Positions 12,257-20,106 of a stretch of DNA of 64,000 nucleotides are shown in pieces. Source of the stretch: an uncultured Gemmatimonadales bacterium (lineage in GTDB: Bacteria; Gemmatimonadota; Gemmatimonadetes; Gemmatimonadales; GWC2-71-9); the NCBI GenBank assembly GCA_963748815.1, contig CAVVKJ010000005.1:384001-448000 (forward strand), given 5' to 3'. The position numbers were made by a program, and so were the translations under genes. The notes under the pieces are model-generated. The model did no database searches. It had not been told where the DNA came from and saw nothing but the letters and a program-made list of their open reading frames with translations. The stretch's first letter is position 1; each line of letters starts with the position of its first letter.

Positions 12257-12292
12257 GACGATGGCACGCTCCCCTAGGCCGTGGGGGAGGGC

Positions 12293-13987
12293 GTGATCTT
12301 TTCGATCGACTCCGAAGCCTGCGTGGCCTGTCTGGCCTGCGTCCGCGTCTGTCCGACGGAAGCGGTCGCCGTGGACGGGGAGCAGGTGCAGATCGTGGAT
12401 GAGGCGTGCATTGCGTGCGGCGAGTGTCTGCCGGCGTGCCCGCATCAGGCCATCCACGCGAGCGGAGAAATCGGTCGCGCGCTGACGGTCGCGGCTCGGG
12501 GCGACGGCATTCTGATCCTGAGTTCGGAAGCGACGGCGCACTTTTTCCCGGCTACGCCGGAGCAGGTGGTCAACGCCTGCTACGCGGCCGGGTTCCGCAC
12601 GGTGCATCGCGGGGTCATCGGCGATGAACTCGTGGCGGCGGAGTACTTGAGTCTCTGGCGTGACGAGGGGTGGGGCACGCTGATCCGGTCCACCGATCCG
12701 GTGGTGGTCGAGACGGTGCGCATCGATTACCCCGAGCTGGTGCCGTACCTGGCGCCGGTCACGATACCTGCGGTGGCGGAGGCGCGGTATCTTCGCGCGC
12801 AGCACGGGCAGGAGCTTCGCATCGTGTACGCCGGCGTCGCGGCGCCGCGGAACACGCCGGAGCTCGATGCCGCCGTCACCTTCGACGACCTCGAGCGGAT
12901 CTTTCAGTTGCGGGGCGTCTCGGTGCTCGCGCAGGCCGATTTCTTCGCGCGGATTCCCGAGGAACGGCGCCGGCACCTGAGCGCCGCGGGCGGCCTGCCG
13001 CTCGCCATGCTCGAGGAGGCGCGCCACGCGAGCCGCCGGTTCCGCACCATGCGGGGGCTCAAGCACCTGCCGGCGCTGGCCCAGGCGGTGGCGGTCGACC
13101 GGCTGGACCTGGGGTTCGTGGACCTGCTCTCCTTCGAGGGGGGGCTCGACCACCCGCTGCTCGGTCCGAAGGACCAGCTCTACTGGCGGCGCGCCCTCCT
13201 CGCGAGCGCGGAGCCGCCGCGGAGCCCGCGACCGGTGGTGGATGGAGCGGTGGTGGCGAGTATCGGGGCCACGTTCGACATCCGGCCCCGGCGGCTGGCG
13301 TCCGATCCGACCGCGGTGGCAGCCTTGCTCGACGCCATCGGTCCGGGGCCCAATGGGCGCCCTTGGGACTGCGGGGCCTGCGGCTTCACCACCTGCGCGC
13401 GGTTCGCGTCCGCGGCGGTGCTCGGCCGGGCGACGCTCCGCCAGTGCCCGCCGTACCAGGAGCGCCGCGCGGAAGAGGCCTCGCGCGAGGCGGCGGTGGA
13501 CCTGCTGACCGGACTCGCCACCTTCCGGGTGCTGCGCGACCGGCTGAGCCACGAGATTGAACGGAGCAAGCGCAGCGAGGAAGGGTTCGCGGTGCTGTTC
13601 ATCGACCTCGACCGCTTCAAGCTGCTGAACGACCGGTTCGGGCACGAGGCAGGCAACGAGGTCCTGAAGGCGGTGGCGGCGGAAATCCGGAGCGCAGTGC
13701 GCGCCTCCGACCTTGCCGCCCGCTACGGAGGCGACGAGTTCGTCGTCATCCTGACCCGCACCGACCTCCATGGCGCCCGCCGAGTGGCGGAGGCGCTTCG
13801 GGCCGGCATCGAAGGGGTCGGGCGCCGACTGGGGTACGAGGTCGGGGTCGTGACCGTTAGCATCGGGCTGGCCGAGTTCGACCCGGCGAGCCCCACCGAG
13901 GGCGACCTGCTGGTGACCGCCGATCGCGCCTTGTACCAGGCCAAGGCCACGGGCCGGAACGCCGTGGCCAACGAAGGGGCCGCCTGA
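12293..13987 (+). CDS. Fe-S diguanylate cyclase: 2x[4Fe-4S] ferredoxin + degenerate [FeFe]-hydrogenase-like domain + FeS domain + GGDEF
   Basis: CVACLACVRVCP, CIACGECLPACP, CGACGFTTC..C, DLDRFK, RASD and ARYGGDEF. Confidence 0.85.
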   Translation: MIFSIDSEACVACLACVRVCPTEAVAVDGEQVQIVDEACIACGECLPACPHQAIHASGEIGRALTVAARGDGILILSSEATAHFFPATPEQVVNACYAAGFRTVHRGVIGDELVAAEYLSLWRDEGWGTLIRSTDPVVVETVRIDYPELVPYLAPVTIPAVAEARYLRAQHGQELRIVYAGVAAPRNTPELDAAVTFDDLERIFQLRGVSVLAQADFFARIPEERRRHLSAAGGLPLAMLEEARHASRRFRTMRGLKHLPALAQAVAVDRLDLGFVDLLSFEGGLDHPLLGPKDQLYWRRALLASAEPPRSPRPVVDGAVVASIGATFDIRPRRLASDPTAVAALLDAIGPGPNGRPWDCGACGFTTCARFASAAVLGRATLRQCPPYQERRAEEASREAAVDLLTGLATFRVLRDRLSHEIERSKRSEEGFAVLFIDLDRFKLLNDRFGHEAGNEVLKAVAAEIRSAVRASDLAARYGGDEFVVILTRTDLHGARRVAEALRAGIEGVGRRLGYEVGVVTVSIGLAEFDPASPTEGDLLVTADRALYQAKATGRNAVANEGAA

Positions 13988-14031: not shown

Positions 14032-14787
14032 ATGGCGTTCAATTCCGCGAGGCAGTCCGACGCCGGCTTCCAGGCCGCGCGCACCACGCCAAGTGGTGGG
14101 CACGGTGGTGAGGCGCCCGATCCCTGGGGCGTGCGCCGGGCGGAAAACCTCCTGACCACGCTCGAGGGGATTCTCTCCGCGCGGGTCGTCACCACGCCGC
14201 TCGGCGAGGTGAGCGAGGTGCACATCCTGGCCCAGTCGGGGCTCGCGCCGAAGCAGCTGGTGCGGAACATCGAGTCGGCGCTCCTGGCGCAGCTCGGCCT
14301 CCGGGTGGACCACCGCAAGATCAGCATCGCGCAGACGGCGGACGTCAAGCCGATCGAGGCGCTCGAAAAGGAGGCGGTGCGGAGCCAGGCGCTCCACCGG
14401 GCCATCCTCTTCGAGGACCTGACGGTGGCGCCGGGCAAGCGCGCGCACCGGATCACCATCAGCGTGAGCCTCAGCTTCCTCGGCCGGAAGGAAACGGCGG
14501 AAGAGGAGAGCAGTGACACGCCGCGGAGCCGGGTAGAGGCGGCGGCGCGGGCCACGGTCTTGGTGCTCGACCGGTTGCTGGAGGACTCGTCGGTGGCGCT
14601 CGAGGGGGCCAAGATCGTCCCCGCCTTCGACCGGGACTTCGTGTTCGTGGCGGTGCAGGGGCTGGGCGGGCGCGAGTCGCTCGTGCTGACCGGCAGCGCG
14701 CAGATCAAGGAAAGCGCCGAGCGGGCCGCGGTCTTTGCGGTGCTCGACGCAACCAACCGATGGACGGAACTCCGCCGACCGCGATAG
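14032..14787 (+). CDS. conserved hypothetical protein; C-terminal LeuA-allosteric-like fold
   Basis: host-like codon usage; EVHILA..PKQLVRNIESAL..DHRKISIAQ N-domain; C-domain of two beta3-alpha units ending AVLDATNR. Confidence 0.75.
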   Translation: MAFNSARQSDAGFQAARTTPSGGHGGEAPDPWGVRRAENLLTTLEGILSARVVTTPLGEVSEVHILAQSGLAPKQLVRNIESALLAQLGLRVDHRKISIAQTADVKPIEALEKEAVRSQALHRAILFEDLTVAPGKRAHRITISVSLSFLGRKETAEEESSDTPRSRVEAAARATVLVLDRLLEDSSVALEGAKIVPAFDRDFVFVAVQGLGGRESLVLTGSAQIKESAERAAVFAVLDATNRWTELRRPR

Positions 14788-14800
14788 GCGCGGGCGGCGA

Positions 14801-14950
14801 TTCTACCAACCCGAGCGGAGGGAACAGAGCGAGGTAGGGGGTCGAGTCTTCAAGAGGCAGCGGAGACTAGCGGACAACAGAGCGGAGCGTCTGGTAGGCC
14901 ATAGCGAGGCCGACCACTTCCCGAGTCACTGATGTACTCGAAGGGAGGTG
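14801..14950 (+). promoter_or_regulatory. putative structured cis-regulatory leader with repeats and an anti-SD hairpin
   Basis: six AGCG(G/A)(A/G)(G/C) units in predicted loops and junctions; CACTTCCC pairs with GGGAGGTG. Confidence 0.6.
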
Positions 14951-14956
14951 ACGCTC

Positions 14957-15037
14957 ATGTTGCAGATTACTTGGCTTGCCGCCGCTGTGAAGTTCGTGGC
15001 GAATCTGTTCCTGGCCGAAGGCCAGGACTGGGCCTAG
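14957..15037 (+). CDS. 26-aa peptide MLQITWLAAAVKFVANLFLAEGQDWA
   Basis: strong SD AAGGGAGGTGA just upstream of ATG; fills the gap before the HD-GYP gene; absent from the ORF track. Confidence 0.72.
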   Translation: MLQITWLAAAVKFVANLFLAEGQDWA

Positions 15038-15080
15038 TTAGGGCCTGATGCCTCGACCCCCCACCGAGCTGTTCCAATCC

Positions 15081-16484
15081 ATGAGATCACTCACCAAGAC
15101 CAATCTGTTCATCGCGTTCATGGCTTCTGTCGCCGTGGCGCTGGGCGTGTTGGCTTGGCAGCATCGGCAGCCCTCCCCGGGCATTTGGCCGCTTCTCAGC
15201 TTCATCTTCATGGCGTTTCTGGTGGAGCAGAGCACTACGGAGCTCAAGGTTTCCGCGCGCGGGTCGACCTCCTTCGTGATGCATATGTCCGCCGGTTTGA
15301 TTTTTGGTGGATTTTGGGGTGGGGTAGTCGCAGCTTCCTCAACGGCTCTTGGGCAACTGTCGATTGGTAACCCACCAGCAAAGACGCTGTTCAATATCGC
15401 CCAGCGCGCGGCATCTGTGCTTATCGCTGTTCTTGTCTATCGCCTGCTCGAAGGCGGCCTACCTCCTGCATACATGCAAGTCGTTGGAACTGTTGAGTCC
15501 TCGGCGATTCAGCGGGACTTCTTCCTATTCTTCGCATATGCCGCAACGTACTTCGTAGTGAATTCTATGGCGGTGAGTGGGGTTGTGGCGCTGAGCGCGG
15601 AGCGCTCATTCCGAGATGTGTGGAGCCTCAACACCCGCGGTGTCATCGGGTACGACCTCGGGGCCAGCGCCATCGCCCTGCTGCTGGCGTGGCTCTATAC
15701 CTGGTTCCAGGCCACTTGGGAGCTCGGCTCCATCGGTCTGGTCCTGGTGGTGATTCCGATTGTGGCGGTGCGGCATGTGTACGGGCTCTACCACCAGTTG
15801 CAGGAGAGCGGCCAGGAACTCCTCCAGGTGATGGTCAAGGCCATCGAGGCCCGCGACCCCTACACCTCCGGCCACTCCCTCCGGGTGAGCCAGCTTTCCC
15901 GGCTCATTGCGCTGGAAATGGGCCTCCAGATTCGCGACGTGGAACAGGTGCACACCGCCGCGCTGCTGCACGACGTCGGCAAGATTCACGAGGAGTTCGC
16001 GCCGCTGCTGCGGAAGGAAGACCGGCTGACCGCCGACGAAACGGCGCTGATGCAGACCCACTCCGCCCGGAGCGCCGAGCTGGTGGGGATCATCTCGAAG
16101 TTTCGCGGCTTCATCCAGGAGTCGGTGCGCCACCACCACGAGCGGTGGGACGGGAAGGGATACCCGGCCGGCCTCTCCGGGCACGAGATCCCGCTGGCCT
16201 CCCGGATCATCCTGGTGGCCGACACCATCGACGCCATGACCACCGACCGCCCCTACCGGAAGCGGCTCCCGCTCGAAGTCGTCATCGCGGAGCTCCAGAA
16301 GTGCCGCGGCGGGCAGTTCGACCCCGAGGTGGTGGAACATGTGGTATCGTCCGTCGCGGTGCGACGTCTGATCACCGTCGGTGTCGAATCGTCTCCGATG
16401 CCTGCCACTGTCACAGTCTCCGACCCCGGCGCCACTCGTGCTGGATGGGCGAAGAAGTCGTTCTGGAAGGGGCGGTCGGCCTAG
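15081..16484 (+). CDS. membrane-anchored HD-GYP c-di-GMP phosphodiesterase (MASE-like sensor); start may be 15048
   Basis: about 7 TM helices, then EARDPYTSGHS, LHDVGKI, HHERWDGKGYP and DAMTTDRPYRK. Confidence 0.92.
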   Translation: MRSLTKTNLFIAFMASVAVALGVLAWQHRQPSPGIWPLLSFIFMAFLVEQSTTELKVSARGSTSFVMHMSAGLIFGGFWGGVVAASSTALGQLSIGNPPAKTLFNIAQRAASVLIAVLVYRLLEGGLPPAYMQVVGTVESSAIQRDFFLFFAYAATYFVVNSMAVSGVVALSAERSFRDVWSLNTRGVIGYDLGASAIALLLAWLYTWFQATWELGSIGLVLVVIPIVAVRHVYGLYHQLQESGQELLQVMVKAIEARDPYTSGHSLRVSQLSRLIALEMGLQIRDVEQVHTAALLHDVGKIHEEFAPLLRKEDRLTADETALMQTHSARSAELVGIISKFRGFIQESVRHHHERWDGKGYPAGLSGHEIPLASRIILVADTIDAMTTDRPYRKRLPLEVVIAELQKCRGGQFDPEVVEHVVSSVAVRRLITVGVESSPMPATVTVSDPGATRAGWAKKSFWKGRSA

Positions 16485-16499
16485 CAGAGCCGAGACTTC

Positions 16500-19400
16500 T
16501 CAGATATCGAGCATCCCGAAAGCTCGCAGTTCATTTGCAGCTCCCAATGGGAGCTTAACCAGCCTCCTCCACATCTCCTCTCGTTCCCCCTCATCGGCAT
16601 CATTGGACTTGTGAATCGAGCCAGACCTTGGCGTTCAGGACCTCGGCCTGATCAATACTGTCTAGGGAATCTCTGGCGCGACAAGAGTGTCGCTAGGGCT
16701 AGTGCGCGCCTCTTCGATGGGGATGTCGCCGTTCGCGGCACTCTTGGCAAGCCATCGTGCGAAGGGACCAGCAAGAGAATCGGATTGAAGCTTCTCGCAT
16801 CTCCCCCGTCAGTGCCCCTATCGCGCTTTCCTGCGCCTCCCTGTTTCGTCCAAGTAAGGCGAGGACGTCGGCTGCGCGTAGCTGCCACAACTGGCGTACC
16901 CAACGTTGATCGACATGTTGAAGGGCTGCATTTCCTCGACGGAGTTCATCCAGGGCTTCCATTGTTTCACCACGAAGTGCATGGCCCTCTGCCAGGATGT
17001 AGTGGAGATTTTGATCAAGAATATCGATCTGTTGACTTCCACTTCTCGCCGGTGGCCCTGCTCGCCCATTGCAACTGGGCGTCCTGAATTGCCAAGTCGC
17101 GAATGGAACAGTGCAATGTTTGCAAGGAAAGAGCCGCAGCCGGCGCTCTTCGCCCATTTCACGCGCCGCAGCCACTCCACGCTCCCCGATAGCAAGCGCA
17201 ACTTCGTATTCGCCTAGGCTGCTATGGATAGCGCAACGCCCCAACAGTAGGGCGAGGTAGACTGAGTTCTTGATCTTGTTGGCCTCAAGGTCACCGATGA
17301 CCTCATCTATGACTTCAAGGCTGCGCGCTCGGTCGCCAGAGAAGTAGAGGCACAAGGCCTTGCCCAAGGGCGTATTCCCCCTTGTCCTCCAGGGAAAGTG
17401 CGCTGAACTCTTCGCTCTCAAGTTGCTTCCAGATGTCTGCGAGCAACGATCTGTCTCGGGTACTCCCGAAATAGTCTCGCTGCAATCCACAGTGCCCGAA
17501 GTCGCGTGTTGGGCTCTTCTGCCGATCTCGCTTCGCGGAGAAGATTCATTGCAATATCCCGACTCCGATCTGCCGTCCGGTCGTTTACTAGTTGTTCTGC
17601 GTAGAGCCGCAACACGTTTCGTCTTGTGAGAATCTCTGCGCGGGACGAGGCTCTGGACCGCGTCAAGCGACGCCATCGACTCCCGCATCCTCCCTTGTTC
17701 CTGGAGCGACTCTCCGAGCAGAAGGAGGGCTTCGCTCTTGTCCGGCTCCTTGAGCCGATCCATTGCCGTGGAGAGCCCACGCTCCGCCTCGTGCGGGGCC
17801 CCTCCGCGCATCGACTCCCGCGCCCCACGCAACAGATAGGGTGTCGCCTCATCGGGCCTCCCGGCGCGGATCAGGTGCCAGGCGATTTCCAGCCCCGGGA
17901 TCCGCCCGCCGTTCGCCTCGATGGCGAGCAGCCGGGAGACGACCTCGCCGTGCAGCGCCGTCCGCATCGGCTTGGGAATGCCGAGGTACGCATGCCCCCG
18001 CGTCAATTCGTTCACGAATTCGAGTCGCTCCTCCGTTTCGCGCAGCAACCGGGATGACCGGAGCGCCTCCATCGACTGACCCGTCGCGCCGAGCCCCAGG
18101 TCCACGATCTGGTACATCGGGAATTCGTTCAGTCTCGGCCCCAACACCGCCGCGAGCTGCAGCGCCAGACGTGCCGGTGCGTCGAGCCCCTCACAGATCC
18201 GGTCCAGCGCCATCCGGTAGGCATCTTCCGGGGGTGAGCGTTGACCCAACTCCTCGCGCATCGCCGGGACGGCGAGCGCGAGGCTGCCTTCGCCGCTGCT
18301 GATCCACTCGCTTACGAAGAGCTCGAGTGCGAGCGGATATCCCCCTGCGGCGCGGAGCATGGCGTCGCGCACCGATTTCCCCGGATCGGGACCGTCGGCG
18401 GTCAGCGTGTCGAGCATCTCGGCCGCCTCGTCCGGCGCCATTGGCGGCACCTCGAGGGAGACAAACCCGAGCCGGGTGTGGCTCTCGCGCAGGCGGGCGA
18501 TGTTCGGCGACTCGTTGGGACCCGTGGGCCGCGCGGCCAGCGCGATCATGACCCGCTCGGACTCGAACCGGCGGGCGAGAAGGTGGATCACGGACAGGCT
18601 GGCGTCGTCCGCCATGTGGAAGTCATCGACGACCAGCATCACCGGGGTCTCCTCGGCGATGGTCCGGAGCAGCGACTCCATCGCGTCGGTCACCCGAATG
18701 CGGAACGACTCCCCGTGGAGCTGCAGGGACGGGGGAAGGCTGGGGAATTGCTCCCGGAGCGCCGGAACCGCCTGGCTCAGGTCGGCCAACGACTGGGGAG
18801 AGGTGCCCAGCGCCTCGGGGCGCTCAAGCAGTCCGCGGACCAGCGCGCCGAGGGCGGCGTAGGGAATCTCCCGCTCCAACTCGTAGCACTGCACCCGGCT
18901 GGTGACGGCCCCGTCGAGGCTGACGGCCGTCATCAGCCGCTGCAGCAGGGTGCTCTTGCCGATGCCCGATTCGCCCAGGACCAGGGCGTGCGTGGGGACG
19001 CCGCGCGTGGTGCGCTCCCAGGCTTCGTACATCGTCTGGTACTCGGCGGTCCGACCGATGAAGGTGCGATCCCGCCATTGCTCGGTGGGGACGCGCGGGC
19101 GGTTGCCGTCGCCGCCCCCCTCGAGTGTCCCGCGGCGGAGGCGCCTCGCCATCGCCTCGAGCTGCTCGGAAGGCTCGGCGTGCAGTTCGGTATGGAGATC
19201 ATGCTTCCAGGTCTCGAACGCCTTGAGGGCGCCGATGCGGTCGCCGGCGAACGCCCGCGCTTCGATCCGTGCCCGGATCGCCGCTTCGCTCAGTGCATTG
19301 TGGCGCAGGGTCCGCTCGGCGAGTGGTTCGATGCCGGTGAAGTCTCCCGTCCGGCGGCAGTAGTCCATCTGGCGGACCAGTGCCGCCTCGATCGAGGGCC

Positions 19401-19836
19401 AGAGCCGGGCGCGCTGCTGGTCGCGCCAATGGTTGAAGCTGGGAGCGTCCGGGACGTCGAAGTCCTCGAGAAAGGCATCCACCTCGAGGGCAGGCAGAAG
19501 GTCCGTGGCCAGGACCTCCCCCCGTTGCAGCCGGTCCAGGTCACACTCCAGCTGGACCGTGGTGCGAATGGTGTAGGTGTCGCCGGGGAACGACTTGGGA
19601 CCCACCCGGTTCCGGAGTGCCCAGATGGCGGTCCCCATCGAATGGCGCGCCTCGTTCATCCCGGCGTTCGACCAAAGGAGGTCGGCAAGCCGCTCGCGAC
19701 GGATGGGAGCCCGCCCCTCCATGGTGAGATAGATCAGGAGCGCGAGCTGCTTTTGGGTCCTGAGGCGGATCGGGCTCCCGCTGGCGTCGAGGAGGGCGGG
19801 ATGACCCAGACAACGGAGGTATGCGGGCTTGCCCAT
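16500..19836 (-). CDS. SARP/BTAD + AAA ATPase (STAND) + TPR regulator; several frameshifts in the 3' third
   Basis: RRERLADLLW, FNHWRDQQR, GESGIGKS and VDDFHMAD motifs; TPR-like pieces continue in shifting frames to ..ELRAFGMLDI* at 16500. Confidence 0.8.
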
Positions 19837-20106
19837 CGAAGGCTCCGGTAGCGTGGTGCGGATACCATGGGGTCGCGGGCTCAACGGGGGATCAACGACG
19901 AGAGGATCAGGTGTTGAGAGATTGTAATGTTCCTCGCCTCCGCGATTTGTCCAGAGCCCTGCATCACGGTTCGCAAGCCTTTTCCCTGCAACGTGTTGCA
20001 CGTCACGGTACGGCCCCGATGTTGCGACTCTCTCCTTTGACTCGGTAGATTGCCCCGCCTTTGTGACCCCGCGCACTCCCCATTGCGCCTCAATCGGAGA
20101 TTCTCA

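Follow-up and report, generated by a model that had tools for sequence, protein, structure and literature searches.

The Phr/CSF pentapeptides act with Rap, and the SHP/ComS peptides with Rgg/ComR, through soluble TPR-protein receptors. The window (the whole 64,000-nucleotide stretch of DNA analyzed here) contains a 26-codon gene that resembles these systems in being a tiny precursor gene beside that of its putative receptor, with a hydrophobic leader, a short variable C-terminal product and probable sensing on the cytoplasmic side, but has no sequence family in common with them; here the receptor would be a membrane one-component c-di-GMP enzyme, the peptide gene lies upstream of it, and the arrangement occurs in diderms. 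No RRNPP/TPR receptor is encoded beside the peptide gene, the neighbors of which encode an unnamed protein and a MASE9-HD-GYP phosphodiesterase. The amphipathic leader recalls those of ComX and AgrD, and a Trp near the C-terminus is a feature of ComX as well. The alignments contain neither the conserved Cys, Ser or Thr ring residue nor the acidic C-terminal extension of AgrD, no AgrB was matched in this 86%-complete genome, and no ComQ prenyltransferase is encoded by the flanking genes, in agreement with the original prediction that no peptide-modifying enzyme is visible nearby; such an enzyme seems not to be needed, since a signal-peptidase-like motif suits most members of the family. MgrB of the MgrB-PhoQ pair and SafA are likewise short hydrophobic proteins tied to signaling, without a family match to the peptide, and the same is true of the riboswitch-controlled small proteins of C. 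difficile (PMC13724677), a report whose main text mentions neither MASE nor tryptophan and has HD-GYP in one reference only.

The downstream protein belongs to the MASE9-HD-GYP family (PF20972), which includes TM1467 of T. maritima and HdgA of S. venezuelae. MASE9 is described in the main text of the preprint that defined it as a domain of eight predicted helices with conserved aromatic and Asn/Ser residues, with which the downstream protein agrees, and as predicted to bind its ligand within the membrane; that main text names no ligand and has 0 occurrences of the word "peptide", and a supplementary MASE9 figure may bear on topology (bioRxiv 10.1101/2021.11.05.467447). An hdgA mutant had no developmental phenotype, and its authors proposed that an activating signal was missing (PMC6205966). 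ECF S-components bind their ligands on the outer side of the membrane, an orientation retained by 5TMR kinases, and both the S-components and the 5TMR-LYT kinases BtsS and YpdA share with MASE9 a six-helix core and an extra N-terminal helix (PMC11109136, the main text of which mentions neither MASE nor HD-GYP). MASE9, in contrast, has an eighth helix and a core predicted to lie upside down with its pocket loops in the cytoplasm, and the known ligands of receptors that have the S-component fold are vitamins, metals and pyruvate, not a gene-encoded peptide. No description of a peptide-MASE9 system was found in the literature searched, from which subscription journals were largely absent.

The peptide gene and its conservation

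The peptide gene (14957..15037, plus strand) extends from an ATG at 14957 to a TAG at 15035-15037 and encodes MLQITWLAAAVKFVANLFLAEGQDWA, with a hydrophobic helix at approximately residues 2-20, a small-X-small motif (A20-E21-G22) and the tail QDWA. Its Shine-Dalgarno (SD) site, AAGGGAGGTGA (14941-14951, plus strand), ends 5 nt 5' of the ATG and is predicted to pair with 14915-14922. The existence, position and SD site of the ORF are as originally predicted; the C-terminal Trp is present in the tail but is the penultimate residue, not strictly the terminal one. The stop codon had been placed just before the HD-GYP gene, which holds for the longest open frame of that gene (from 15048) but not for its likely start at 15081, preferred because the orthologs mostly lack an ATG at 15048; they start 40-45 nt past the peptide stop. 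A small hairpin spans the stop codon (15031-15045, plus strand), with compensatory variants in close relatives.

The gene is present in one copy in the whole genome. As a description alone it is within chance, because 16 ORFs of the same genome combine an SD site, 17-45 amino acids, hydrophobicity and a Trp in the last four residues; the case therefore stands on conservation, which exceeds chance. The downstream protein was matched in 42 of 61 related genomes, and 29 of the best 30 ortholog loci retrieved from them were scored by a fixed rule (SD site, 17-45 amino acids, hydrophobic, Trp within the last four residues). The ORF is present at 27 of the 29, which bears out the small-ORF check proposed with the original prediction; one of the two missed loci has no upstream DNA and the other has an ORF running 4 codons beyond the usual stop. 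The second check proposed, for synonymous-biased change, was equally favorable: over 13 ungapped relatives the dN/dS of the peptide, from pairwise counts over kin as for all such values here, is 0.22, whereas the shifted frames give 1.28 and 2.49 and the opposite strand 0.86, and the variable columns are distributed 13/8/22 by codon position. The corresponding values are 0.27 in Deinococcota, 0.18 in Thermotogota and 0.34 in Bacillota, giving a range of 0.18-0.34 in the four computable phyla versus 0.7-2.5 in shifted frames; a second Bacillota set is saturated for substitutions (pN/pS 0.37). The 26-codon ORF is genuine and is selected at the protein level.

The peptide fits no Pfam or NCBIfam family; in a scan of 85 members the best E was 0.012, and no family was matched by more than 4 of them. 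A profile of the family, of a shortness that limits power, found 2 matches among 1.84 billion representatives, both of them family members, and an Atlas search with a 35-aa member gave no usable match. By exact look-up, 3 of 10 peptides are present, in entries that are unnamed or "hypothetical". One 58-aa protein (P0005) resembles two family peptides fused in one frame.

The MASE9 sensor and its linkage to the peptide

The MASE9-HD-GYP phosphodiesterase (15081..16484, plus strand) has the HD, HHE, GYP and RP motifs, and matches PF20972 with 33.5 bits (cut-off 24.3) and HD_5 with an E-value of 1.5e-34. A diguanylate cyclase that combines 4Fe-4S domains with an [FeFe]-hydrogenase-like core (12281-13987, plus strand) is encoded two genes upstream of the peptide on the same strand, and a convergent BTAD/STAND-type regulator (16699-20076, minus strand) follows the enzyme; at two other loci (L021 and L034) a similar convergent region of atypical composition comes after the enzyme gene.

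An AlphaFold2 model of MASE9 (139 sequences; pLDDT 94.5) superimposes on RibU with a Z of 14.7 and an rmsd of 2.8 over 159 aligned residues. In the VIA comparison the top 14 chains are all ECF-transporter membrane subunits (Z 14.7-11.0, the next row being 8.2), and the best Foldseek matches are also ECF S-components, with weak E-values. MASE9 is therefore predicted to have the ligand-binding S-component fold, with its six-helix core and one more helix at each end, as judged from a predicted model in a class of helical bundles that may score high by chance. Both termini of MASE9 are rich in Lys and Arg, as are the pocket-side loops (mean K+R 1.6, 2.8 and 2.4, versus 0.7, 0.04, 0.8 and 0.3 in the alternate loops of the 139 sequences), because of which the positive-inside rule predicts an inverted core with cytoplasmic pocket loops. 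F104, N105, N161 and Y206 are nearly invariant, and the first three of these sit with Q108 (86%) in the cytoplasmic half of the domain.

PF20972 is present in 74 of the 151 genomes sampled from the phylum of the window, and in 85/201 genomes of an Actinomycetota-centered set (two of the 85, G314 and G282, are unpublished and contributed no loci), 71/201 of a Bacillota set, 37/81 of a Thermus set and 29/61 of a Pseudothermotoga set; Thermus and Thermotoga carry MASE9 in a control set as well. The best loci of each search (about 30) were read, and after removal of 14 duplicates and 6 loci with less than 200 nt upstream, 163 MASE9-HD-GYP loci remained. A peptide that satisfies the fixed rule is found upstream of 126 of these 163 genes, near-identical kin being retained in the counts, in five phyla (45/55, 12/19, 22/30, 28/29 and 19/27 per set, others 0/3), versus 0/163 on the reverse strand and 0/50 upstream of HD-GYP genes without MASE9. 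The linkage is thus to the MASE9 membrane sensor in particular and not to HD-GYP enzymes at large. Under relaxed rules 153 of the 163 loci have a peptide by eye, 27 of the 37 fixed-rule misses being members with a longer tail, with a terminal Phe or Ile instead of Trp, or with no SD site, and none was seen at the other ten (L050, L094, L101, L116, L161, L198, L203, L229, L240 and L257). Among 25 other MASE9 loci, several of them truncated or unclassified, 6 have the peptide, one of them the locus of a MASE9 histidine kinase (L168); it is mostly absent where the output domains are GGDEF/EAL. Tandem copies are present at L040, L041, L155, L164, L258 and L264. The peptide is probably the partner of MASE9, a specificity that the original prediction missed together with the spread over five phyla and the structured RNA around the ORF.

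Several of these loci have further features. A second MASE9-like gene lies directly 3' of the MASE9-HD-GYP gene at L160, L162, L170-L174, L181, L187, L199 and L207. The Chloroflexota locus L050 has, upstream of 2500, another kind of signal-peptide-like ORF, with Trp and two Cys at its end. In Thermotogota, the peptides of L258-L263 have a basic extension after the Trp; these loci lack AGCGGA repeats, and their enzyme gene is preceded by a -10-like box.

All members of the peptide family have a hydrophobic helix, preceded by a basic start in four phyla (mean N-region charge +1.8 to +3.0) but not in Gemmatimonadota (+0.18), where the peptides, that of the window among them, are weak Sec substrates because the basic N-region is missing. 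A small-X-small, signal-peptidase-like motif, common by composition in such Ala/Gly-rich peptides, is located 4-5 residues from the end in 116 of 128 distinct peptides and leaves a Trp tail. Its position is sharp in Gemmatimonadota (31/44 at tail length 4, no other length being reached by more than 13) and Thermotogota (18/20 at length 5) and unspecific in Deinococcota, in which 26/26 fit tail lengths of 6, 8 and 10 too. Cleavage after A-E-G would release QDWA from the peptide of the window. The residues flanking the Trp vary most among close kin.

Tail distance tracks MASE9 distance when HD-GYP and the upstream protein are removed (partial r 0.28 and 0.37; n = 28 and 19), and leader distance does so when the catalytic domain and the upstream neighbor are removed (0.39 and 0.30; n = 28 and 19), in Mantel-type tests that overstate significance on kin and in which the faster evolution of MASE9 than of the controls may inflate the correlation; the tail does not track the upstream protein (0.09 and -0.31). 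Overall, the covariation of the peptide is stronger with MASE9 than with either the catalytic domain or the upstream gene. In a set of 61 disjoint pairs, the tail correlates with each half of MASE9 (rho 0.48 and 0.39). Confinement of the tail covariation to the cytoplasmic half seemed significant in 4 of 5 groups and was rejected, as it did not exceed random column splits (41 of 300). Conservation in Deinococcota is stronger for the leader than for the catalytic domain (0.24 versus 0.33). At three MASE9 loci that have no peptide (L098, L100 and L101) the preceding gene encodes a subtilase with an aromatic repeat tail, WASAS or SGFVLG, its identity confirmed by Pfam at two of the three, which suggests that aromatic peptides may also be supplied by such tails. 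Subtilases with these tails are encoded upstream of MASE9 enzymes at L278 (147-2015, minus strand), L280 and L279 (822-3008, plus strand), and those of L278 and L280 have a twice-repeated Trp-containing motif near the N-terminus.

RNA around the ORF, the upstream protein and expression

On the plus strand, AGCG(G/A)(A/G) repeats (14814..14908), which are candidate protein-binding sites and include the only cluster in the genome of four AGCG(G/A)A words within 80 nt, run into a conserved three-way junction (14885..14956) composed of 14885-14890 paired with 14951-14956, a hairpin at 14897-14911, and a hairpin at 14915-14950 that contains the SD site. A long-range stem encloses the peptide ORF, its 5' arm at 14837..14846 and its 3' arm at 15052..15061, 20-29 nt before the likely MASE9 start, and 8 of its 10 pairs have changed on both sides. 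The strand 14835-15066 folds better than 200/200 shuffles (z -3.9). Among 25 aligned loci, related to one another and fitted to a structure derived from the window, 88% of cells are paired and both sides have changed in 21 of the 33 pairs, a covariation that exceeds 500/500 shuffles and every slid control. The predicted unpaired probability of the SD site is 0.20 over 40 Gemmatimonadota loci. Cognate stem arms pair better than non-cognate arms in Gemmatimonadota, Bacillota, Thermotogota and Actinomycetota, with hardly any difference in Deinococcota. The RNA pattern is present in 47 of 151 genomes, almost always once per genome; of 8 matches seemingly without an adjacent MASE9, 3 have MASE9 downstream, 4 are at a contig end and 1 is a chance match without a peptide, and no orphan RNA/peptide module was seen among these 8. 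Rfam contains no credible match. Two regulatory readings were rejected: CsrA, as a binder of the repeats, was not found in the 86%-complete genome, and a sigma-54 site in an upstream motif, as read from the sequence, would have GG-N9-GC spacing. Neither a sigma-70 site nor a terminator was found in 14700-15200.

Deinococcota differ in lacking the enclosing stem and mostly also the repeats. They have a terminator-like hairpin 3' of the peptide at 20 of 24 loci and a -10-like box 5' of the enzyme start at 21 of 26, the latter by a pattern written after these gaps had been viewed. Because the Deinococcota peptide persists (28/29 loci) without the stem, the constant unit consists of the peptide and MASE9, the RNA being a lineage-specific layer of control.

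The unnamed 251-aa protein encoded upstream (14032..14787, plus strand) has an alpha/beta N-terminal domain predicted to resemble KH or ring-building folds and a C-terminal domain predicted to resemble the amino-acid-binding regulatory domain of LeuA. It is adjacent mainly in Gemmatimonadota and Bacillota and is accessory; our guess is that it binds the AGCG repeats. The Atlas contains only unnamed clusters for this protein. Its iterated profile drifted to receiver-like ORFs at several loci, the rows of which were excluded from alignment A2, and a second match of the profile in the genome is not trusted.

Contigs of relatives from 4/4 RNA libraries cover the module wholly or partly. In two libraries the module contig has a depth of 563 and 144, versus 3-8 for its neighbors, which hints at expression of the module, contig depth being unable to rank genes (an unrelated contig is 149 deep in one run) and DNA being possibly present. 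One such contig ends at 15063, the end of the stem.

Possible modes of action of the peptide

The original prediction offered two functions, a precursor of an exported signal or a membrane microprotein regulating the phosphodiesterase; both stay viable and jointly take most of the weight. The reading that we prefer, at a probability of about 0.45, is that MASE9 senses a 4-5-residue Trp signal of which the peptide is the precursor. The helix would direct this precursor to the membrane, cleavage of the signal-peptidase type after A-E-G would liberate the tail, predicted to be QDWA here, and binding of the tail in the MASE9 pocket would modulate the c-di-GMP phosphodiesterase fused to it. A pocket that faces the cytoplasm, as predicted, would require the tail to be re-imported by an oligopeptide permease, in the manner of Phr, or to arrive from the membrane; three oligopeptide-type binding proteins score above the cut-off in the genome, which shows re-import to be possible. 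In the lineage of the window, the folded RNA would ration synthesis of the peptide by concealing the ribosome site, and the upstream protein might control this. The variable residues around the Trp count for the signal reading, because signals that bear pherotypes show the same. The linkage to MASE9, the predicted S-component fold, the position of the small-X-small motif, the covariation of the tail with MASE9, the tandem copies and the subtilase repeat tails count for it as well. Against it are the weak Sec fit in Gemmatimonadota, the need for re-import imposed by an inward pocket, the frequency of the small-X-small motif in Ala/Gly-rich peptides, the members that end in Phe or Ile, and the covariation of the leader with MASE9. 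On this last point, given also the conservation of the Deinococcota leader, a peptide that binds uncut fits better: as a membrane microprotein subunit in the manner of MgrB or SafA, its helix would pack on MASE9 and its Trp tail would plug the inward-facing pocket, the signal being whatever governs peptide synthesis. Such a subunit is consistent with the tight control that the RNA would exert on translation in three phyla, and the uncharged N-terminus in Gemmatimonadota could be N-out/C-in or on the inner leaflet, but the basic MKK starts of four phyla predict N-in/C-out with the tail outside, the protease-like motif is fixed at a fixed distance from the end, and the subtilase repeat tails appear to provide free aromatic peptides instead; we consider the uncut subunit the main rival, less likely than the processed signal.

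The remaining readings give the peptide sequence a lesser part or another one. Translation of the ORF might chiefly open the enclosing stem and so switch synthesis of the enzyme, the peptide itself being secondary; the covarying stem ends shortly before the MASE9 start, its structure agrees in Gemmatimonadota, Bacillota and Thermotogota, and an SD site precedes only 6 of the 42 MASE9 starts in Gemmatimonadota (median gap 39 nt). A pure leader switch is nonetheless unlikely, because in Deinococcota the terminator-like hairpin and -10-like box usually separate the two genes, and neither protein-level selection, tandem copies nor covariation with the sensor would be expected of it; coupling may be a second layer in the lineage of the window, where so few MASE9 starts have an SD site. 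A different target for the peptide, as a type I toxin-like membrane peptide or the ligand of another receptor with MASE9 merely co-regulated, is very improbable: the hydrophobic peptide, hidden SD site and paired mRNA ends do resemble type I toxin mRNAs, but the RNA pattern is nearly always single-copy, with no orphan module seen, and the covariation is specific to MASE9. It is scarcely conceivable that the ORF is untranslated and the RNA alone matters, as the predicted pairing of the SD site might suggest, given the dN/dS values in four phyla.

Extended across the phyla, the signal reading becomes more tentative: short, species-variable Trp peptides, made from micro-genes or protease repeat tails, and rationed in the lineage of the window by an undescribed, end-paired RNA, would be read by an inverted S-component pocket fused to c-di-GMP enzymes or kinases. 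Few membrane c-di-GMP enzymes have a known signal, and the orphan MASE9 family, present in 35-49% of sampled genomes in each of five phyla, gains a specific candidate ligand that is cheap to synthesize, with Thermus and Thermotoga as tractable hosts that carry MASE9. If this reading is true, the peptides would constitute a new signaling family mostly missed by annotation pipelines, the S-component fold would prove able to sense peptides while inverted, and Gemmatimonadota, Bacillota, Actinomycetota, Deinococcota and Thermotogota would possess quorum-type sensing that leads directly to c-di-GMP.
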